Origin: a virus
Direction: 5' to 3' (one strand)
Virus record (IMG/VR): IMGVR_UViG_3300028800_000073
Location: 1-64,000 of that record
Length of the DNA stretch: 64,000 nt
In this document: positions 39,889-52,175 of the stretch, one piece after another
Numbering within the stretch: the first letter of the stretch is position 1
How the letters are laid out: every line of letters starts with the position of its first letter
Program-made: the position numbers and the translations under genes
Notes under the pieces: model-generated
Seen by the model: only the letters and a program-made list of their open reading frames with translations
Databases searched by the model: none
What the model was told of the DNA's origin: nothing

Positions 39889-40074
39889 TTACCTTCCGTA
39901 TTCATGCAGTACCCGTGTTTTAACTAGTCGATATTCTATGACCGCCTCTGGATCTTCAATGACTACTCTACGACAGGTGGGGCAGAAGTACAAAGAAGCT
40001 ACCTCATGAACCATATGCTCTTGCATCATATCCCCACAACTACACCCCACACTGTCTTGTCCACACCGGCTCAT
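39889..40074 (-). CDS. Small Zn-ribbon protein
   Basis: CSCG...CPTC; ATGA overlap with the E1 gene. Confidence 0.55.
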   Translation of the reverse strand: MSRCGQDSVGCSCGDMMQEHMVHEVASLYFCPTCRRVVIEDPEAVIEYRLVKTRVLHEYGR

Positions 40075-40757
40075 CGCGCCGCCGCTGCTACCGCTACTGT
40101 CTTAGGGGTGTTGAACAGTTCTAGGGACAATAGATTCAAATTAAAGTCCTTTTCTAATGACATACCCCGTAGGTACTTAGAGAACTGACTAACCATCAGA
40201 CCAGCCGCGATATTGGCTGTGAAGATGGTGGACTTAGCGGTACAACTCCCTTGGAAGGCATCCTCTGCTGCAAATAGGCTATCACCATACGAGGGGGTAA
40301 CGAAGTTGTCTTCGGTCACCACGCGAATGGTCTCAGCCGACATGCGGGCGTCAATGAACACCTCAGTCTCGGGAAGCTTAGCAACCGTAGCGAAGATCTT
40401 ACCTCTTGTGGTAATATCGTCGACACAGCAGAAATAGATATCACCCTTAACTGCGTCACAGAACCGCATGTCATGAGCCGTAGTAGCTCCGGGGTTGAGC
40501 CCCTCACAATCAACAAGAAGAGCATCGACCTTCTTCTTACCGACGTCCCCGGGCCTAAAGCCCTGGGGACCGACATTGACGATGTCAACGGTGTCGAAAT
40601 CAACGATGTTCAATTTACCGATGCCACAGGCAGATAGCTGGAGAGCTACCTGCCTGCCAATGGCGCCGACTCCAATAACAACAGCCGCAGTCGCCTTGAG
40701 ATCTGCGGTTGGCAGCAAAGTAGACTGCCTATCGAACCGTGTTGGTTCAGTAGCCAT
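40071..40757 (-). CDS. ThiF/E1-like Ubl-activating enzyme (module B)
   Basis: RFDRQ, GVGAIG, DFDTVDIVN..Q, KKV, CCVD...R and IDARM; putative catalytic Cys in GSCTAK. Confidence 0.9.
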   Translation of the reverse strand: MATEPTRFDRQSTLLPTADLKATAAVVIGVGAIGRQVALQLSACGIGKLNIVDFDTVDIVNVGPQGFRPGDVGKKKVDALLVDCEGLNPGATTAHDMRFCDAVKGDIYFCCVDDITTRGKIFATVAKLPETEVFIDARMSAETIRVVTEDNFVTPSYGDSLFAAEDAFQGSCTAKSTIFTANIAAGLMVSQFSKYLRGMSLEKDFNLNLLSLELFNTPKTVAVAAAAR

Positions 40758-42202
40758 TAGGATTCCCCTAGCATGATTTGAGTTTCTTCTTCGCTCGCCG
40801 GCTTAGCCGGTGGAGTGCCGCAATACTCAATGAATGAACCACCATTCTCGATAACATCACTTTCGTCGTACATATCCTGGATCTGGAACAGAGCCGCATC
40901 AGCAGTCAGCTCGCCAGATACGACTTTCTCAGCCAATAGCATCTCATCGTGGGTCAGGATGAGGGCATCACAGGCGTCTACGGAGCCACGTAGCTGCCAT
41001 AGACAGTTAGCCCGAACCTTCTTGTACACATTCGTGACGATGTCGCCGGTAATGACGGTATCACCGTACTTCCGGGTATGCGTCAGATTGTTCATTGCTC
41101 TCTCGAAATCATCACGCTCAGCGTTGATGTTCTCTTCGAAGTCAACAAATGCCCACGCCTGACTAAACGGCAAATCGTAGAACGTCTCACCACGAGACAG
41201 CGTAAACCGCTGAGTCCCGTTTGTTACATTTATGACTTCCTTGAAACCATACTCCTTGAGATACTCTACTCTTTCTGGCGTGGAAGGCGGAACCCACTTA
41301 AGCTGCTCCATAGACCAGAGAGCGTCAACGTACGTACCCTCTGCAAGAGTGGGGGGCGTGACGCCACCTTGTTGTCTGGGAAACGGAATCGTGGACAGTG
41401 CCTCCTCCCCATGGGACTTGGCGCCAATTATGATTTCCTGAGTAATCTCCGCGACTGCGTCAGTAATCGCCTGCTGCGTCGGAGTCGTCTCCTGACGAAG
41501 AGCGAGATTCTCCCGTGCAGCAGCTCTAGCGGCCCGCTTCTGCTGCTTCTTGCTAAGAGGCATCTGCTGCTGTACCTGCTTGCCCCAGTACCCACTTGGG
41601 AGCTGTGAGCGCCCCTTGTAGCCACCACGGGTATCTGCGTCTTCACCGTAACCACCATAGGCATAGCCCTGGACAGTAATCTTGGGGGTGATCTCTGCCT
41701 TCCACTCAGCGTGATTAGCGCCCTTGAAGTCAGTGGTAAGAGTCAGCTCCTCCTTGAGCATCATCTGGAGGTTAACATCATTGCCAAGGGATACTCGAAT
41801 ACGGGCATAGAGCGGGCCACCCTTAGGAAGGATAACCATCATTGCCCATGGCATGGAGCCAAAGGATTCAGCGAAAATATTCTCATCGTGCTGCGACGGA
41901 TTCAGGCATCCAGACGGGTGGGTGTGGATGTAGATACGTCCAACCTGATGGGGCTTCAACTTATGCGGCCCCTCGGGGTCACAGTACTTCATGAACATGT
42001 TGTCAGCGATATCCGCTGCGTCCATGTCAACGAATACCGTGGAACACTTCTGCTTCGGAATATACAGATCGGTAACCAAGAATGGGTCAGCCGTTTCAGC
42101 TAGACCCATGGCTCCGACTTCATGGTTATAATGATCGCAGATGAATTGGAGCTTAGCCCGAGCATACGGGGTAAACTTGAGCGTGATGCCGGTGATGTTC
42201 AT
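40757..42202 (-). CDS. JAB/MPN+ metalloprotease with a long C-terminal extension (module B)
   Basis: EVG...HTHPSGCLNPSQHD fits the E...HxH-x7-S-x2-D JAMM motif. Confidence 0.88.
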   Translation of the reverse strand: MNITGITLKFTPYARAKLQFICDHYNHEVGAMGLAETADPFLVTDLYIPKQKCSTVFVDMDAADIADNMFMKYCDPEGPHKLKPHQVGRIYIHTHPSGCLNPSQHDENIFAESFGSMPWAMMVILPKGGPLYARIRVSLGNDVNLQMMLKEELTLTTDFKGANHAEWKAEITPKITVQGYAYGGYGEDADTRGGYKGRSQLPSGYWGKQVQQQMPLSKKQQKRAARAAARENLALRQETTPTQQAITDAVAEITQEIIIGAKSHGEEALSTIPFPRQQGGVTPPTLAEGTYVDALWSMEQLKWVPPSTPERVEYLKEYGFKEVINVTNGTQRFTLSRGETFYDLPFSQAWAFVDFEENINAERDDFERAMNNLTHTRKYGDTVITGDIVTNVYKKVRANCLWQLRGSVDACDALILTHDEMLLAEKVVSGELTADAALFQIQDMYDESDVIENGGSFIEYCGTPPAKPASEEETQIMLGES

Positions 42203-42207
42203 TGTGT

Positions 42208-44604
42208 TTATCTTGATGGGGTTTCGGATATAGCGGGTGCTGCCGTAATGAAGTCTACGTGTGCTAGCCTACAGAGCGTATCAGCAACAACCTCAATTGT
42301 AAGACCAGAACGGAAGGTACCATGGTCATTAAGAGCGCTCCTGAGCCGATGAATGGTTTCATACCAGTCAACGGATTCCCAGTCTTCGAGTTCTGAGCTA
42401 TCCTCTTCAAAATCTTCATCCTTAACAAGTACTAGATCCATGATATACGCCTGAGGCACGAAATGCTGCAACAGAGTCATCAAATAAGCTTCCCGCATAC
42501 CGGGTTGGCATACCGCGTCTGATAGGCCCACTGAAGATGGGTCACAGGTCTTACAGGTCTCGGTATTCATGATCTCATCGAAGGCAACAATGGTATTGTT
42601 GAAAACAGCATCGGACAAATTTATTTCGCCTAGTGTGGCACCACAGCTTGGGCAATTGCACCCCGGCGTTGGAGCTACTACTGGGAACGCTACAGTGGAA
42701 TCCGCTTCAATAGCCGCACGTTGAGCCTCTATAACTGCACGCTGAGCCTCGCGGGCTACTCGTGCTGCCTCACGCTGAGCAGCTTCTAATGCTAGTCTAG
42801 CCTCTATCTCTTTGTTAACACAGTTCGCGCAGATACAAGTGCTGCCTTGATTACGACCGTGGTAGCGCCTGGAATCATATCTGGTATTACACGTTGCACA
42901 CGGCTTGATATAGCGCTTATCAATCGACTGTTTACTGATACCACAGACCTCAGTGCAATTCGGGCACATATGGATATCGGCATGCGGATCACGCTTCCTG
43001 GTCTCAGCGACAAGGGGCGTAGTACAGATATCACAGCGATCCATATCGGACCAATTATCAAGACTGATATATGGCGAACGGCCATACGTCATCAAGATGC
43101 GCTCGATATATTGGAATAGATCCGCGATTAGTCCATTACGCATCAGGTTGCCAGCGGTAGCTAGACCCTCACCGAAACATAGGTGCGTACCCTCAACGTG
43201 GGGGTGCGACCAGCTTGTCCCGCGTTCACGCCTGGGGAAATGCGGGGTAAGCGCCTTAATCCTACAGACTCTATCGACATTACGCTGTGTATCTCCACAG
43301 GCATAACCGAAGTCATACGCTGCGATGATAATAGCGAACTTATTGAACTTAATCGGGATCTTTCTATCGTCCATCAGTTCGACATCTTCGGTTACGAACT
43401 TGATACCAATGGGTGCTACTCCATTGTCTATCATGGAACCCTCTTCATGGAACTGAAGAGCCTTGGCACGCATCAAGGTGGCGCACTCAACGATGAACCG
43501 ATCAATGACGTCTTGCGACGGACGAGGCGGTTCCACGTTGTAGGGGTTCTCACCATTTTTAATGGCCAGCAATTCGTCTAGCACCTTCTTCTTCATGTCA
43601 TTAGAGAAAGCTTCACGAAGAATAGTGGGCAGCTTCTGGGCACTCTCGCCGCAGCAGAACAGGCCGTGCCAATGGGCTAACACATTAGTGACGCGTTGGA
43701 AATTCCCAGCGTTACCATTTGCTGCGCCCTTCTTGAGCCCCTCTTCGTAACCGAAATAGAAGTTCTGCACTACTTTAATGAGTTTGTCTAAATCCTCGAT
43801 GGCATCAGGAACTAGCCTGCGCACCGTCGAGTCTACAGCAGTTCCCTGCTCTGTGTTCAGTGTTCTCACTTGTCTTTCCTGTGGTGTTACTACTGCAATA
43901 GCGCTTCTGTCTGATCCCGTACTAGCGAAGTCGGTACTTACGCTGAAAATTCTGGGAGCGTCGCTACTCACCATAAACATATGCGGTGGTATGCCCATAG
44001 CCCGGGTGTAGTCACTTAATGTAGCCCGCAATGGACCTTCTTCTACTACCATGTGAGCCGGAATCGGCTGGATCGGAGGCGCCATTGGTTCTAACGCCTC
44101 CTGAATAGCACGGAGACTAGCAGCCGCAGATGCAGGGCTGGGGAAGGCGCCAGTTAAGTCGCCACCGACAGTACCAACTGTATTGTTCGCCCCAGCTGCT
44201 CGCTGGCTTTCAATGGCGTGCATAATCTCACGACCATCAGCGTTAATCTCGTCCATCACAGTATGATTAGCCGGTCTACCACGTATCGTAAAAACATCCC
44301 CGGGGCGGATCTGAGTCATTACGGGAGCGCGGCTATTATCCAGTAGAACGCGGTTGACTTCGTCTCTAAACTGTACTTCGCTTAACGGCACTGGTACTGG
44401 GCGGTTAAGTGCCCTATCTACAATATTTGTCGAAGCGTTATCACCGAACTGTTCTCTCCAGGCGCTCTGGCGTACCAAAAGCTCATCTAAGACATCTCGT
44501 GACATATTCGGGAATCGCTCCCGTAAATTAGGGGGATGCCTGAAATAGTCCAGAGCGTCCTGGAGCATGTCATCCGGTGAGGAAAAAGGGTTGAACTCAC
44601 TCAC
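42208..44604 (-). CDS. Prokaryotic E2-like conjugating protein with a C-terminal Cys-rich Zn-finger region (module B)
   Basis: SHPHVEGTHLCFG (HPH...C, E2-like) and SPY..L..W, followed by CDIC, CPNC, CATC, CANC, CPSC and CKTC. Confidence 0.75.
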   Translation of the reverse strand: MSEFNPFSSPDDMLQDALDYFRHPPNLRERFPNMSRDVLDELLVRQSAWREQFGDNASTNIVDRALNRPVPVPLSEVQFRDEVNRVLLDNSRAPVMTQIRPGDVFTIRGRPANHTVMDEINADGREIMHAIESQRAAGANNTVGTVGGDLTGAFPSPASAAASLRAIQEALEPMAPPIQPIPAHMVVEEGPLRATLSDYTRAMGIPPHMFMVSSDAPRIFSVSTDFASTGSDRSAIAVVTPQERQVRTLNTEQGTAVDSTVRRLVPDAIEDLDKLIKVVQNFYFGYEEGLKKGAANGNAGNFQRVTNVLAHWHGLFCCGESAQKLPTILREAFSNDMKKKVLDELLAIKNGENPYNVEPPRPSQDVIDRFIVECATLMRAKALQFHEEGSMIDNGVAPIGIKFVTEDVELMDDRKIPIKFNKFAIIIAAYDFGYACGDTQRNVDRVCRIKALTPHFPRRERGTSWSHPHVEGTHLCFGEGLATAGNLMRNGLIADLFQYIERILMTYGRSPYISLDNWSDMDRCDICTTPLVAETRKRDPHADIHMCPNCTEVCGISKQSIDKRYIKPCATCNTRYDSRRYHGRNQGSTCICANCVNKEIEARLALEAAQREAARVAREAQRAVIEAQRAAIEADSTVAFPVVAPTPGCNCPSCGATLGEINLSDAVFNNTIVAFDEIMNTETCKTCDPSSVGLSDAVCQPGMREAYLMTLLQHFVPQAYIMDLVLVKDEDFEEDSSELEDWESVDWYETIHRLRSALNDHGTFRSGLTIEVVADTLCRLAHVDFITAAPAISETPSR

Positions 44605-44894
44605 GTCTTCCTCGACAACTTCTCAAGCGCAGCATCTAGCCCTTTGACTCTGAACTCGCTGACATCTCCTTCATGGTTACAAAGACCACAAACGCATAGG
44701 CTATGCTCGTGAAAGTCGAATTCGGCCATGTCGACCATTATTCCTTTACTGTCAAAAATACCTACACATACGCCGCCTATCTCAAAACGAGATCTACCTC
44801 CGCATCCCGGGCAGATCAGGTCTTGGGATGTGCCCCGGTTTATGTCGTTTTTCGTTAATCTGAACTTCGTTATTACTTCATTGGGGTCATTCAT
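44601..44894 (-). CDS. Zn-ribbon protein
   Basis: CPGC...CVCGLC; coupled to the E2 gene. Confidence 0.6.
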   Translation of the reverse strand: MNDPNEVITKFRLTKNDINRGTSQDLICPGCGGRSRFEIGGVCVGIFDSKGIMVDMAEFDFHEHSLCVCGLCNHEGDVSEFRVKGLDAALEKLSRKT

Positions 44895-45688
44895 TACTTA
44901 CCTACGATAGTGAACTTCTTTGCTAATTTAAGACGCTTCTGCAATGTCTCACGATCCCAACCCTGGCCCTTGGGCTTCGGCTTAGGGCTAAGCTGGAAAA
45001 CCATAACCAATACACCTTCGCCACCTACGCCTATACTAAGAGTTTCGAGATGCTTACCTACGTGTCCATTCTTATAGCAGCTGGACAACGTAAACTGAAT
45101 GAAATCCTCCTCGCTCGGATTCGGAGTACCATAGTCCAGCACTGCGTTTTCTACTAACCCGGCTCTGTAGGAACTATACTTACAAGGCTTATTGAACGTT
45201 AGGAAGAGTAGCCCACCACGCTTCTTCATCATTGAAGTGAGACCTCTCTCTAATTGCCGAGCACAATCACCGTAGTCGTCGCAGGCTATAACATCGAATT
45301 TCCAGCTATCGCGATCAGCTATCTCGGCAAACTGGGCTGCCATAACTGTAAGCGCGTCGCCGTCTTCCTTGCGTCGGTTAACCATTTCAGAACAGAAGGG
45401 TCGGAAAGCCTTAGTCATCTCACCTTCCTGCCCATCATCCTTAAAAGCATGGGACTGATACAGAACTAGCCCGGATTTACCCTCCAGCCATTTTTGTATG
45501 AGTCCCTGTTTTTCGGTATGGTGCATCGAAGGATGCCCAGTAGCCTTTTTCCATTGACGCCTGTAAATGTTAACCTTAGACAATTCCAAATTCAACTTCT
45601 CGCCAATCTCTTTGTTCGGTGCGCCGCTATGCATCATTGCAAATATTGCGTCACGAAGTTTAGTACCATCAGCTAGGCGTATAGTCAT
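44894..45688 (-). CDS. HTH plus degenerate methyltransferase-like domain protein
   Basis: NKEIGEKLNLELSKV (HTH); FDVIACDDYG...GGLLFLT resembles Trm1-like FDxIDLDPYG. Confidence 0.45.
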   Translation of the reverse strand: MTIRLADGTKLRDAIFAMMHSGAPNKEIGEKLNLELSKVNIYRRQWKKATGHPSMHHTEKQGLIQKWLEGKSGLVLYQSHAFKDDGQEGEMTKAFRPFCSEMVNRRKEDGDALTVMAAQFAEIADRDSWKFDVIACDDYGDCARQLERGLTSMMKKRGGLLFLTFNKPCKYSSYRAGLVENAVLDYGTPNPSEEDFIQFTLSSCYKNGHVGKHLETLSIGVGGEGVLVMVFQLSPKPKPKGQGWDRETLQKRLKLAKKFTIVGK

Positions 45689-45701: not shown

Positions 45702-45737
45702 GAAAAAGATGCCCCCGTGGGGTTACCACGGGGGACT
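45702..45737 (-). terminator. Rho-independent terminator after the poly-Ubl gene
   Basis: Minus strand CCCCCGTGG-taacc-CCACGGGGG then CATCTTTTTC. Confidence 0.75.
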
Positions 45738-45762: not shown

Positions 45763-46428
45763 TTAGGCGCCCTGGACCTTGAGCGGGGTGACGGAGATCT
45801 TGTCCCCGTTACGCAGCACAGTCGCAGCCGTGGAGATCTCGTTGTTCACACGAACGAGCTTGCCACGGATGTCATTCAGGCCCTGCTGAGCAAGGAACTG
45901 AGTCAGGGTGATGCCGTCAATGGTCTGAACGGAGCTGGCGAAGCCGGCACCATCGTTGTTGATGTACAGAACCTTAATGGTCTCCACGGCACCCTGGACC
46001 TTGAGCGGGGTAACCGAGACCTTATCGCCGTTCTGGAGAACGTAACCCGCATCAGCCAGGTTGTTATTCACGCGAACCATCTTGTTGGCGATGCTGACAC
46101 CACGACCCGAAATGAACGCCGCGAGCGTGGTGCCCGGGGTGAACGCAACGGAGTCAGCGAAGCCGCCGCCATCGTTGTTGATGAACAGGACCTTGCTAGC
46201 AGCAGCGGGAGCCGCGTAAGCAGGGGCCGCAGCGAACTCGATCTCAATGTAGTCACCGTGCTTAATCGTAGCGTGACCGCTTGAGGGGGTCTCGGAACGG
46301 TTAATGTAGACGGAGGAACCAGCGGGGAGGCCTAGCGCGTTGATGAGTGCATAGACCGTGATATCACCGGCGAAATCCTTGAATGCCGGGGTGCCGCCGT
46401 TGATTTCAACGTTTACTGAGATAGTCAT
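45763..46428 (-). CDS. Three-domain ubiquitin-like (ThiS/MoaD beta-grasp) precursor
   Basis: Three ~70 aa beta-grasp-like units. Units 2 and 3 share INNDG.GFA, VRVNN and L.NGDK.SVTPLKVQGA. Confidence 0.85.
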   Translation of the reverse strand: MTISVNVEINGGTPAFKDFAGDITVYALINALGLPAGSSVYINRSETPSSGHATIKHGDYIEIEFAAAPAYAAPAAASKVLFINNDGGGFADSVAFTPGTTLAAFISGRGVSIANKMVRVNNNLADAGYVLQNGDKVSVTPLKVQGAVETIKVLYINNDGAGFASSVQTIDGITLTQFLAQQGLNDIRGKLVRVNNEISTAATVLRNGDKISVTPLKVQGA

Positions 46429-48756: not shown

Positions 48757-48963
48757 TTAGTTACTCTTGATCTTCTGGGTCAAGAGAACAGCGTTACCCT
48801 CCATGAGGACGGTGCCAAGGGCGCCGACGCTGCCATTGATGCGGATGTCGAAGCCTGAGGCGTCGATACCAGCTGCTGCTAGGGCATCAGCTACCGTCTT
48901 GCCTTCCGGGAGGTTGAGGGGGCGGATGGATGAGCCAGGGAACTTGCCGATGGTGATATTCAT
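48757..48963 (-). CDS. Single-domain ubiquitin-like (ThiS/MoaD-fold) protein (module A)
   Basis: 68 aa; TVADALAAAGI, IRING and L.EG..VLL; C-terminus KIKSN; directly downstream of E1. Confidence 0.8.
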   Translation of the reverse strand: MNITIGKFPGSSIRPLNLPEGKTVADALAAAGIDASGFDIRINGSVGALGTVLMEGNAVLLTQKIKSN

Positions 48964-48974
48964 GTGATTCTTTC

Positions 48975-49673
48975 TTATGACCGGGTTAGGATACAGGGAG
49001 GTGTGACGCCGAAAATTGTTTCTCTTGGCATCCGTTCGACCTTAGAGGCCTTGTCGGTGTACCAATTGAACCAGTTAATGAAACTCCATACCGCTAGACC
49101 GCTAACGATCTCAGCAGTGGGGCCAACGGTAATTTGCGAACCACAAGCACTGACAACAACGACTTCTTCGTCGCCGCAGAGAGTGCCCTCCCAGAATTTG
49201 ACGTCATCAGGACTCGTCGGACGCACCGTATAGGTACGACCTAAGTCGACACCCATACGGGTCTCGAACATGACGTCGATAAATGGCTTATACCGCACGG
49301 CCCCTTCCCAGATTTCCTTTCTGGAGGACATTGTGTCGGTAAGCAAGAATACTACGGACCCCAGCGTTGTGCGGCCATTAACGGCCTCACAATGTTTGGT
49401 CACGTCTAAATTCGTCTGTGTCTTAATAAGGTCAGCTAAGGCGTCTACCTTGAACTTACCGATGTCGTTGTTGCCGTAAATCTGATTTGCGATATTGTGG
49501 GACTCGACCTTGTCGAAATCCCAGACATGCAAATTGATAACACCGAGCTTAGCCAGACCCATGGCGATACGACTACCAGTGGCTCCGACTCCGATAACGT
49601 CAATACGGGTATTGTCGAACTTAACCGGCGAGAATACCTTTTGGTGCCGCATGGCATCGACTAAGTTACTCAC
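48975..49673 (-). CDS. ThiF/E1-like Ubl-activating enzyme (module A)
   Basis: GVGATG, DFDKVESHNIANQ, KFKV, LTDTMSSR and ETRMG; putative catalytic Cys in SACG; likely GTG start at 49673 overlapping the JAB stop. Confidence 0.9.
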   Translation of the reverse strand: MSNLVDAMRHQKVFSPVKFDNTRIDVIGVGATGSRIAMGLAKLGVINLHVWDFDKVESHNIANQIYGNNDIGKFKVDALADLIKTQTNLDVTKHCEAVNGRTTLGSVVFLLTDTMSSRKEIWEGAVRYKPFIDVMFETRMGVDLGRTYTVRPTSPDDVKFWEGTLCGDEEVVVVSACGSQITVGPTAEIVSGLAVWSFINWFNWYTDKASKVERMPRETIFGVTPPCILTRS

Positions 49674-50433
49674 CCCAGAACGTTTCTTCGCTGAATTGTC
49701 CAAAGCGACCCGACGCAGGACCAGCCTGCTGTCCGGATGCCGAGAACTCCGCATGCGTCTTCATAGGTGCCGCGTGGGGATCTACAAAGTTACTTCTCGG
49801 TGTCGGCGTTGGAGTCTGATATGGATACGAGATCAGAGACTTATTGGCCGAATAAAACGATTCAACCAACGAGTTGACCTCTTTACCCCAGTGGCTTTTT
49901 CGGTCGCCCCCGGCAGCGTAATCGATCTCCCAATCAATATCCTCGACTACGATGTCCATCTCGAACCAGAAGAAGTCCAACTTCATCTTGTGACGCTTGT
50001 TCACGATGCCACGGAGCACCCAGGGGTACTCGTAGTTATCGCGGAACGCCATCGTCTGGTCGTTGTCCTGACCACTGGGCAAAACGTCCATATTGACGTG
50101 GCTATGGAAATAGCCGCGCAAGTTATTGGCACGCCACAACGCTGGATCGATACCAGCGGCCATGTCCTCAGCGATAAGCTGAGTACCTAGTGTGGATAGC
50201 CCCTCGGAAGTCAGCTCAGTGGTTGTCGAGTGAACCTGCTGCTTGAACAAATAGACGTCATCAACATAAATGACGCGCTCGCCGTTCTCTTTGACTAAAC
50301 GAGCCGTGGTCAGCCAGCCGACTTCGGTACTAACAATATCAGTCAAAATCCACATATCCGTAGCCGCCCTGAGTGAGACTTTCACTCGGGGGCAGCCTAG
50401 GACGGTGGTCTGGAATGCATGTGGATTAAACAT
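49666..50433 (-). CDS. JAB/MPN+ metalloprotease (module A)
   Basis: EVGW...HSHVNMDVLPSGQD JAMM motif. Confidence 0.88.
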   Translation of the reverse strand: MFNPHAFQTTVLGCPRVKVSLRAATDMWILTDIVSTEVGWLTTARLVKENGERVIYVDDVYLFKQQVHSTTTELTSEGLSTLGTQLIAEDMAAGIDPALWRANNLRGYFHSHVNMDVLPSGQDNDQTMAFRDNYEYPWVLRGIVNKRHKMKLDFFWFEMDIVVEDIDWEIDYAAGGDRKSHWGKEVNSLVESFYSANKSLISYPYQTPTPTPRSNFVDPHAAPMKTHAEFSASGQQAGPASGRFGQFSEETFWGE

Positions 50434-52175
50434 TAGAACGGCCCTTCTCCTGGAGTTCTTTCTACTTCGTCAGCATCTTCTGGTGCCCCAACTGCTACAA
50501 GCTCTTCTAAAGCAGCGGCAATAACTTCAACAATCTCTGCACCGTCAACAGCAGTAGCCGTGCCAGTAGCGCCGGCTCCGGCATCAACAATCGTTACAGT
50601 ATCAACAGCAACAGGTGGTACCGCAACAGGTGGTACCGCAACAGGTGGTACCGCAACAGGTGGTGCTTCAGCCACTGCTGGGGTTTCTTCTTCACCCTCT
50701 AGAATGCCTTCAACAACAGTCTCAACGGTATCGACTTCAACGGGCTGCCCAGCTGCCGCTCGTGCTGCACGACGCAACTCCCGAGCTGCTTCCTTATCGA
50801 TCTCCTGTTGCTTAACCGATAGCGGCCAAGCATGAACCATCTTGCCGGCGGCGTCGTCAACATTGCAGGTCTGGAGAATCGCAATCACTAGCTCGATGGC
50901 ATCAGCAATCTGATATCCAGCGACTAGCTTCGGTAGCACCTCTTCCATATTGCCGAGACACATACGCCCCGTTGGGAACACATGGGGACCATGCATATTG
51001 GGCTGCATACCAGTCACTTGGCGATCAAGGTTGGTAACGACGATGTTGTACCGCTTGATATCGATATGAATCGACATGCGACCAACTTCGTGCTCCTTCT
51101 TCGACCGTGGATCAACTACTGTCAAAGTATTGGTGCGCACCGTAATATTACCGTTACGCATCCTGATCTGCTGGATCAACGGATTAGCCGCCAGACGATC
51201 ATACTCTGCTGTGAATCGCGGAGTACTGAAATCGGCATCATTGTCTAGTACTGCTATTTCCTTGAGGCACTGGCGTTCTTCGCGGATCCCGTCAAATACC
51301 TTCTTATTCAAGTTCGTAAGCTCGGTCTGGACCGTGTTCAGTCTATTGGTGATCTCACGGACCTGGATCTGCTTACGCTTCTCAACCATTCTGACGTAGT
51401 CCGCTCGTAGCGCTGCTGGATCAGTCTCGACGAGCTTAGCACGGGCATAGTTCTCGGCAACGTATTGAATGATCTTCTTGAAGATCTCAACTTCTCTAGG
51501 GCTATTGTTGTGACACAAGTCCGAATAGATATAGAGGTTATTCTCATCGAAGCCTGCAATCGGTCGCTCGGGATACTCCGGGGAGCAAACGTCTATGCCC
51601 TCAGTCCATGGGACGCCATCCATTGCGTCACGGGTCTGTAACTCCATGCCCCACAGAATCCGAGGTGGATCATACGAGGGCTCGCCTCCATCTCGTGCTT
51701 CTGGAGTAGCCCACACATGAATCTTGAACATCGATTCAAGGGTATTGGGAACAATGGAACGACTATTATGTGGTACGTCGATAGTGACATCGCGCTTAAT
51801 GACGGGGACCAAGATCTCACGGCAGATCTTTAGCCAGCCATCGGCTACTGGGTTACTGACAACACCACCACGGATATGACCCCAGTTAACTATACGGATC
51901 GTTGAAGGATCCCTACCGGCAACGGACGGGGTACCATCACGATAAACAATTTGAGCAACCTTTATGATAACCCCGGCAGCTTCAGCTGTTGGCGGTGTAG
52001 CAACGGTAGCGGTGATATTGTAGAGCTTACGACCAGAGCTTTCAATCTTAGCGATTAATGCTTCTCTAGCTACGAAGTGACCACCATGCTGGGGTTCACC
52101 GTAGATACGCAAGCCGATCCCACGAAGTTCTTCGCGGGACATCTCGGTTGCTTTGACAAGGACTAGTTCAGGCAT
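50433..52175 (-). CDS. Prokaryotic E2-like conjugating protein with a coiled coil (module A)
   Basis: HGPHVFPTGRMCLGN E2-like catalytic motif after a coiled coil; coupled to JAB and sbcD. Confidence 0.75.
   Translation of the reverse strand: MPELVLVKATEMSREELRGIGLRIYGEPQHGGHFVAREALIAKIESSGRKLYNITATVATPPTAEAAGVIIKVAQIVYRDGTPSVAGRDPSTIRIVNWGHIRGGVVSNPVADGWLKICREILVPVIKRDVTIDVPHNSRSIVPNTLESMFKIHVWATPEARDGGEPSYDPPRILWGMELQTRDAMDGVPWTEGIDVCSPEYPERPIAGFDENNLYIYSDLCHNNSPREVEIFKKIIQYVAENYARAKLVETDPAALRADYVRMVEKRKQIQVREITNRLNTVQTELTNLNKKVFDGIREERQCLKEIAVLDNDADFSTPRFTAEYDRLAANPLIQQIRMRNGNITVRTNTLTVVDPRSKKEHEVGRMSIHIDIKRYNIVVTNLDRQVTGMQPNMHGPHVFPTGRMCLGNMEEVLPKLVAGYQIADAIELVIAILQTCNVDDAAGKMVHAWPLSVKQQEIDKEAARELRRAARAAAGQPVEVDTVETVVEGILEGEEETPAVAEAPPVAVPPVAVPPVAVPPVAVDTVTIVDAGAGATGTATAVDGAEIVEVIAAALEELVAVGAPEDADEVERTPGEGPF
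50608..50664. repeat. 15-bp tandem repeat (about 3.8 copies) encoding PPVAV
   Basis: GCAACAGGTGGTACC x3 plus a 12-bp partial copy. Confidence 0.95.

Follow-up and report, generated by a model that had tools for sequence, protein, structure and literature searches.

Conjugation of ubiquitin-like proteins (Ubls) in bacteria has so far been studied as an anti-phage defense, in the Bil and Bub systems and in Cap2 of CBASS, an anti-phage signaling system based on cyclic oligonucleotides. The genes of a Type II Bil system are arranged in the order Ubl-E2-deubiquitinase (DUB)-E1; the DUB BilC cuts behind a conserved Gly whose next residue is Ala, and the E2 carries a CEHH signature composed of Cys, Glu+6, His+8, and His+13 (PMC10557695). 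A gene set of this kind is carried by a large uncultured phage whose sequence is in IMG/VR (record IMGVR_UViG_3300028800_000073). The window analyzed here comprises positions 1 to 64,000 (64,000 nucleotides) of this 79.8-kb record, which is estimated to be 43% complete. It encodes P0001, a protein of 798 amino acids (aa) that combines an E2-like core with a zinc-finger array. P0001 is probably the E2 of a phage-borne Ubl-tagging cassette in a Bil-like family shared with Planctomycetota, with the array as a built-in module and with extensions that may redirect the enzyme.

The cassette of P0001 (module B) shares four functions and a gene order with the Type II (and Type I) BilABCD systems, which are bacterial, ISG15-like, and directed against phages, and in neither case is there a separate E3 (PMC10557695, PMC11601603). 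The order Ubl-E2-DUB-E1 is exact in the planctomycete (host) loci, while the phage has two extra genes and a hairpin between Ubl and E2. As in Bil, the Ubls contain one or three beta-grasp domains, and a few residues beyond their conserved Gly have to be trimmed off (..QGA or ..EGA here; Gly97-Ala98 in BilA of E. aridi). Bil-type Ubls have up to 9 residues after this Gly, a range that includes both the phage Ubl (PLKVQGA) and the host Ubls, which are ~73 aa long and most commonly end in ..KIEGA plus 0-3 residues. However, P0001 has HPH-x6-C in place of CEHH: FGEGLATAGNLMRNG follows C476, and no conserved His comes after it. The E1 of Bil is two-lobed, with an inactive and an active adenylation domain, whereas the present E1 is a single ThiF domain of ~225 aa. 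Sequence comparison of the E1 with the solved Bil chains gave no match at E<=1e-3. The zinc-finger array fused to the E2 is a further difference from Bil. Bil systems occur in Rhizobiaceae, whereas the present cassette occurs in Planctomycetota and their phages and is here phage-encoded. By analogy, the cassette appears Bil-like in function but departs from Type II Bil in two defining features, having neither CEHH nor a two-lobed E1.

Caldiarchaeum (PMC5654768) and other prokaryotes possess E1/E2/RING-E3 operons in which, as here, a Ubl cascade is combined with a treble-clef zinc domain. In those operons a UQ_con-like E2 is accompanied by a RING that is a small protein of its own, whereas in P0001 the array and a divergent E2 form one chain. 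FANCL joins UBC-like/RWD domains and a C-terminal RING in one chain; its likeness to P0001 is one of analogy only, as the UBC-like domains of FANCL lack a catalytic Cys and the protein needs a separate E2 (UBE2T).

Domain layout of P0001 and its E2-like core

P0001 is a single 798-aa open reading frame (ORF) on the minus strand (42208-44604). It begins with a GTG codon that, within a GTGA junction, overlaps the stop of the 97-aa gene lying upstream. A preliminary description, made from the letters of the window, had proposed an E2-like core at about 43050-43400 followed by at least six CxxC pairs that are split by an Ala/Arg/Glu helix. Four full-length homologs, ~31-38% identical overall, were found by word-index search and exhaustive profile search, and together with P0001 they form a set of five full-length sequences. 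All 12 CxxC Cys residues, along with H541, C554, C699, H467, H469, and C476, are invariant in this set, and the description of ORF, core, and Cys pairs is therefore correct. At the level of these alignments, the Cys pattern of P0001 is conserved far beyond chance.

The UBC/E2-like core comprises residues 360-521 (43042-43527, minus strand), so that the range first proposed covers most of it. Within the core lies the candidate active site, HPH-x6-C476-x-G478 (43171-43206, minus strand), an HPN-like motif followed by the predicted catalytic Cys; the sequence of residues 466-478 is SHPHVEGTHLCFG. At least 90% of 81 family sequences share H467, P468, H469, C476, and G478. The pattern HPH-x6-C-x-G is invariant in 37 host-type members and is invariant or nearly so in a set of more than 110 sequences.

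A structure model of P0001 was built on the alignment of 81 sequences. It is of high confidence between residues 250 and 630 and poor outside them, with a predicted local distance difference test score (pLDDT) of ~90 for the core. The VIA-align matches that cover the core domain are all E2, UEV, or RWD proteins (Z 5.0-6.1, root-mean-square deviation [rmsd] 3.4-4.0, 114-126 of ~150 residues aligned). The best of these is UBE2T (4ccg_A; Z 6.1, rmsd 3.5, 121 aa), and others include UBE2S (Z 5.8-6.0), UbcH10 (Z 5.8), and the UEV domain of TSG101 (Z 5.9). The matches extend over most of each E2, the HPH...C of the core sits where E2s have their HPN loop and catalytic Cys, and no rival fold competes. 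Genes for a ThiF-type E1, a JAB peptidase, and a Ubl adjoin the P0001 gene, and the language-model neighbors of P0001 include UQ_con and E2-CBASS clusters, which serve as a lead only. Compared with the canonical E2s UBE2T, UBE2S, and UbcH5, P0001 matches in structure and has its loop motif and Cys in the equivalent place; it differs from them in its low identity (~10-14%), its core insertions, its N-terminal helical region, and its fused zinc array. Taken together, conservation and model indicate that P0001 is very probably an E2 (carrier/conjugating) enzyme.

Several results weigh against this assignment and the reading built on it. No E2 profile (UQ_con, Prok-E2_A-E, E2-CBASS) from Pfam, NCBIfam, PADLOC, or PHROGs matches P0001 or the 37 host-type members, PDB sequence searches with the core returned no match, and a Foldseek search of the PDB with the whole model returned nothing significant. 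The Z scores of the core are below 8 and are not decisive alone. The core motif is HPH, with His in place of the Asn of HPN. In the array, residues 522-600 hold ten invariant ligand candidates, a number that is not a multiple of four; they might form either two sequential CxxC-x19-CxxC sites or a cross-brace.

The several hundred residues that precede the core had been described as free of recognizable motifs. Residues 1-245 are an acidic N-terminal extension (43870-44604, minus strand; isoelectric point [pI] 4.9) that is poorly conserved and specific to the phage clade, has few invariant columns and a pLDDT mostly below 55, and has no family match. Residues 250-357 (43534-43857, minus strand) form a conserved helical region with confident helices (pLDDT 80-95), an FY.GY..G motif, and W312. 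Some host-type relatives align from about profile position 260, which is within this region.

The array follows the core directly. Zinc modules 1 and 2 (residues 522-600; 42805-43041, minus strand) contain the pairs C524/527, C547/550, C569/572, and C592/595 as well as H541 and C554. A long Ala/Arg/Glu helix (residues 593-632; 42709-42828, minus strand), ~17 residues shorter in the homologs, then splits the array, and its only structural matches are to coiled coils. Zinc module 3 (residues 640-700; 42505-42687, minus strand; AFPVV..NCPSC...TC..CD) holds the pairs 651/654 and 684/687 together with C699. Its Cys residues are invariant in the five full-length sequences, the model is of low confidence here, and the module is specific to the phage clade, the host-type relatives ending before it. 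The C-terminal region (residues 701-798; 42211-42504, minus strand) is acidic, helical, and likewise phage-clade-specific, with REAY and W..WY motifs; an Atlas search with it gave no lead.

A cassette family of Planctomycetota and phages

An exhaustive profile search with a cut-off of E<=1e-3 returned 826 cluster representatives. Just four or five of these are full-length, and the rest are mostly ~340 aa long and match the core and the first zinc modules. A scan for a short degenerate motif, which covered one genome per species, matched at least 120 contigs. Among the matches listed, almost all are from Planctomycetota (Pirellulales, Planctomycetaceae, and Phycisphaerae), and nearly every one lies in an ORF of 330-380 aa with ~10 CxxC. 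The alignment of host-type proteins has three parts. These are an N-terminal helical region, a strand-rich region that ends in THPHV-x4-LCEG...GRL.D...TYN..SPYV.L.DW, and a regular CxxC run whose first eight Cys are spaced C-x2-C-x10/11-C-x2-C-x4-C-x2-C-x3-C-x2-C and which continues onwards.

The host genes form a tight operon on one strand, with the Ubl, JAB, and E1 genes at positions -1, +1, and +2 relative to the E2. The host JABs are ~220-260 aa long, and the host E1s, where cleanly called, are single ThiF-type proteins of ~220-235 aa. Identity between phage and host is 46-48% for the E1, 38-40% for the N-terminal 170 aa of the JAB, 40-51% for the Ubl units, and 25-34% for the E2. Because of these identities and the shared operon, module B is, on the sequence comparison, a remodeled version of a four-gene cassette that is widespread in planctomycetes. 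The array is no peculiarity of the P0001 gene but a hallmark of a large E2 family in Planctomycetota and phages, and fusion of the E2 to a Cys array is the ancestral state of the family and not a local invention. The phage clade differs from the ~340-aa host-type proteins in its shortened array (three modules vs ~five), inserted helix, third zinc module, and long N- and C-terminal extensions. A further viral contig, L002, has an identical gene order with an E2 just 37% identical to P0001.

Neither P0001 nor its relatives match any family in Pfam, NCBIfam, PHROGs, or PADLOC, and megablast and tblastn searches against GenBank phages and PLSDB plasmids gave no match. A literature search, which left one early survey of prokaryotic RING fingers uncovered, located no published description of a planctomycete or phage family of E2-zinc-array proteins. 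Within these searches, the Ubl-E2-JAB-E1 cassette family is neither catalogued nor described.

The planctomycete loci vary in several respects. Extra genes on the same strand lie upstream of the Ubl gene in loci L010, L012, L013, L036, L045, and others; a ~330-aa protein with no Pfam match precedes the cassette in 26 loci and a ~80-aa protein does so in 19. Some loci also carry a classical AAA ATPase of ~490 aa (PF00004) before the cassette, which hints at an unfoldase link. In about one-third of the host E2s an acidic linker leads to a short conserved C-terminal motif of the type V-H-x-x-x-[VL]-G-[QE]-A-x-[VL]-x-A, a possible docking peptide that is missing from the phage protein; examples are found at L007 2249-3397, L018 1018-2022, and L026 1673-3049. 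Some planctomycete genomes hold at least three copies of the cassette on different contigs, as in the metagenome-assembled genome MFD01716.bin.2.82 (L003, L014, and L020). As far as sequence can indicate, such multiplicity would fit an element that is mobile or expanding.

Fold and possible role of the zinc-finger array

The proposal that a zinc-finger array is fused to the E2 is borne out by the invariance of the Cys and His residues in the five full-length sequences and by the fold class of the region, and the array of P0001 very probably binds zinc. When folded alone, the zinc region (residues 512-600) reaches a pLDDT of 87 and matches treble-clef zinc fingers only, namely FYVE, Slp4, PHD, LIM, AN1, and, weakly, RING. 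The best match is RIM2 (2cjs_C; Z 4.9, rmsd 2.0, 49 aa); the weak RING matches include Pex12 (Z 2.4) and TRAF6/TRIM (E 0.2-0.5). A Foldseek search of the PDB with the zinc domain found nothing significant. The resemblance to treble-clef fingers as a class is limited by a Z below 5, by the lack of a significant sequence match, and by a ligand count that does not suit a clean eight-ligand domain. The host-family profile weakly matches B-box1 of MID1 (E 0.0065), the RING-like domain of TFIIH p44, the RING/B-box of TRIM21, and ZZ/FYVE chains, and 8 of the 37 host-type members weakly match Siva. For the host run of ~10 CxxC, no counterpart was found among known zinc-finger systems.

Comparison with RING, B-box, and double zinc-ribbon folds had been put forward as a check on the array. 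This comparison placed the array in the treble-clef class and brought out no preference for RING; the 50 best structural matches of the phage zinc domain include no B-box. The phage array has two units of CxxC-x19-CxxC with short strands, and the matches listed contain no zinc ribbon. The segment C524-x2-C527-x19-C547-x2-C550-x3-C554-x2-[S/G]-x11-C569-x2-C572 fits RING spacing except at the sixth ligand. As judged from the model, the array belongs to the RING/B-box/PHD/FYVE treble-clef class and is not assignable to RING specifically because its best matches are RIM2, FYVE, PHD, and LIM, with RING only weak. E3s and adaptors of the ubiquitin system come from this fold class.

A DNA-binding role was considered and set aside because the host arrays are strongly acidic (median pI 4.1 in 97 copies), a composition that argues against binding of nucleic acid. 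Only zinc modules 1 and 2 of the phage array are mildly basic.

The steps of tagging by the cassette can be proposed by homology. The JAB peptidase would trim the poly-Ubl precursor after each ...VQG|A, and the minimal ThiF-type E1 would adenylate the exposed Gly. The Ubl would then pass to Cys476 of the UBC-like core, beside the HPH motif, and from P0001 to a lysine of the target. The array would be an integral, ancestral set of treble-clef modules, with ~five zinc sites per host copy and ~three in P0001. The added N-terminal 245 residues, inserted helix, third zinc module, and C-terminal helices would most likely redirect the enzyme to targets chosen by the phage, and the phage-specific N- and C-terminal extensions are better candidates than the array for such retargeting. 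The preliminary description had noted that most prokaryotic E1/E2/JAB operons lack a separate E3, and P0001 is indeed set among E1, JAB, and Ubl genes without one. An adaptor or E3-like role of the array is plausible; the likeliest of the roles considered, though with less than even odds, is that of a non-catalytic module for binding or positioning that stands in for the missing E3 or adaptor.

Other explanations start from the same observations. The array could be a true E3 of the RING/B-box type in cis, packing on the UBC core and activating discharge of E2~Ubl, so that P0001 would be a single-chain E2-E3. The spacing of the first eight Cys in host copies resembles that of a B-box-type cross-brace. 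The weak matches of the host profile to MID1, TFIIH p44, TRIM21, and Siva, the RING chains among the weak fold matches, and the lack of a separate E3 gene at the locus point in the same direction. However, Cys-rich profiles draw compositional matches, the best fold matches of the array are FYVE, RIM, PHD, and LIM with RING reaching just Z 2.4, and the sixth RING ligand position in the phage protein is neither Cys nor His. Studied Bil and Cap2 systems, moreover, function without an E3 (PMC10557695). An E3 in cis is improbable, and it is equally doubtful that the fused array is a working E3-type module with which the phage tags host or phage proteins, using its remodeled copy during replication. 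If it were, a bacterial virus would be running its own ubiquitin-like ligase, for example in order to neutralize the homologous cassette of the host or another defense. Somewhat less unlikely is an array with a structural or assembly function only, such as a zinc-stapled rod, an oligomerization module, or a dock for the JAB or for the minimal E1, which lacks a ubiquitin-fold domain (UFD); target choice would then lie elsewhere. The short, regular CxxC-x4-CxxC-x3 repeats and strong acidity point to a scaffold of repeats, copies differ in their number of modules (~five in hosts vs three in the phage), the E1 is a bare ThiF domain, and the inserted 40-residue helix is coiled-coil-like. Against this, conservation of the ligand positions is strict despite very deep divergence, and the core is always followed directly by the array, which is more in keeping with a functional surface than with a spacer.

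The core itself might not function as an E2 but be a UEV/RWD-type pseudo-enzyme, or the whole cassette could be a decoy by which the phage sequesters or reverses the homologous Ubl system of its host. UEV and RWD domains score as high as E2s in the fold searches of the core, P0001 has no E2 profile match, the hosts carry a homologous cassette with which the phage proteins could interfere, and the phage JAB and E2 bear large extra regions. UEV and RWD domains, however, lack the catalytic Cys, while the Cys and HPH motif are invariant in more than 200 sequences of this family. An intact set of E1, JAB, and processable Ubl has also been kept in two phages whose E2s have diverged to 37% identity. 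A pseudo-enzyme or decoy is very improbable, and a conjugating E2 with a built-in array is the preferred reading of P0001.

Gene neighborhood and implications

Nearly all genes of the window are on the minus strand, and P0001 is surrounded by genes for a DNA polymerase, a primase, DnaB-like and other helicases, a UvsX-like recombinase, SbcC/SbcD, and a terminase. In minus-strand order, sbcD is followed by a second cassette (module A; 580-aa E2-like protein, JAB, and E1), a small Ubl, sbcC, and module B. Module B consists of the poly-Ubl gene, a hairpin, a 264-aa gene, a 97-aa zinc protein, the 798-aa E2, a 481-aa JAB, and a 228-aa E1.

The poly-Ubl precursor of module B (45763-46428, minus strand) has three beta-grasp units that share 40-51% identity with planctomycete Ubls; PLKVQGA is the ending of both unit 2 and unit 3. 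Computation places a terminator-like hairpin of 9 pairs (8 G-C) between it and the enzyme genes (45712-45734, minus strand). Since this strong hairpin follows the poly-Ubl gene, expression of the enzyme genes may be lower or may proceed separately. Both genes between Ubl and E2 were found in phages only (L002: 8639-9735). The 264-aa gene (44894-45688, minus strand) has a weak N-terminal match to a GerE-type helix-turn-helix and is kept in L002 and missing from host loci. The 97-aa CPxC...CxCxxC protein (44601-44894, minus strand), whose stop overlaps the E2 start, is 48% identical to its L002 counterpart. Downstream of P0001 lies the JAB/JAMM peptidase (40757-42202, minus strand; HxH-x7-S-xx-D), which carries a C-terminal extension of ~300 aa that the host JABs lack and that is also present in L002 (466 aa). 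It is followed by the minimal ThiF-type E1 (40071-40757, minus strand), which matches Pfam ThiF at 2e-21.

Module A (48975-52175, minus strand) is a divergent E2-like/JAB/E1 cassette located between sbcD and sbcC. It encodes a 580-aa E2-like protein (GPHV..GRMCLG), a 255-aa JAB, and a 259-aa ThiF E1, and is accompanied by a 68-aa Ubl (48757-48963, minus strand). The E1 is ~30% identical to host E1s and 28% identical to the E1 of module B. No relatives of the E2-like protein or the JAB were found in the planctomycete loci. The E2-like protein has no significant similarity to P0001 beyond the motif, and only close relatives of it were found.

The replication module of a single phage thus contains two cassettes together with a poly-Ubl gene. 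The family of E2-zinc-array proteins bears on the question of how systems of the Bil, Bub, and Cap2 type pick their targets without an E3. It represents a natural experiment in which an E2 is permanently joined to a zinc array, is abundant in one bacterial phylum, and has been acquired and remodeled by phages. The source of specificity is directly testable because host and phage versions, which differ in array length and extensions, can be compared side by side. Such a comparison would also reveal whether Ubl tagging serves phages as a means of attack.

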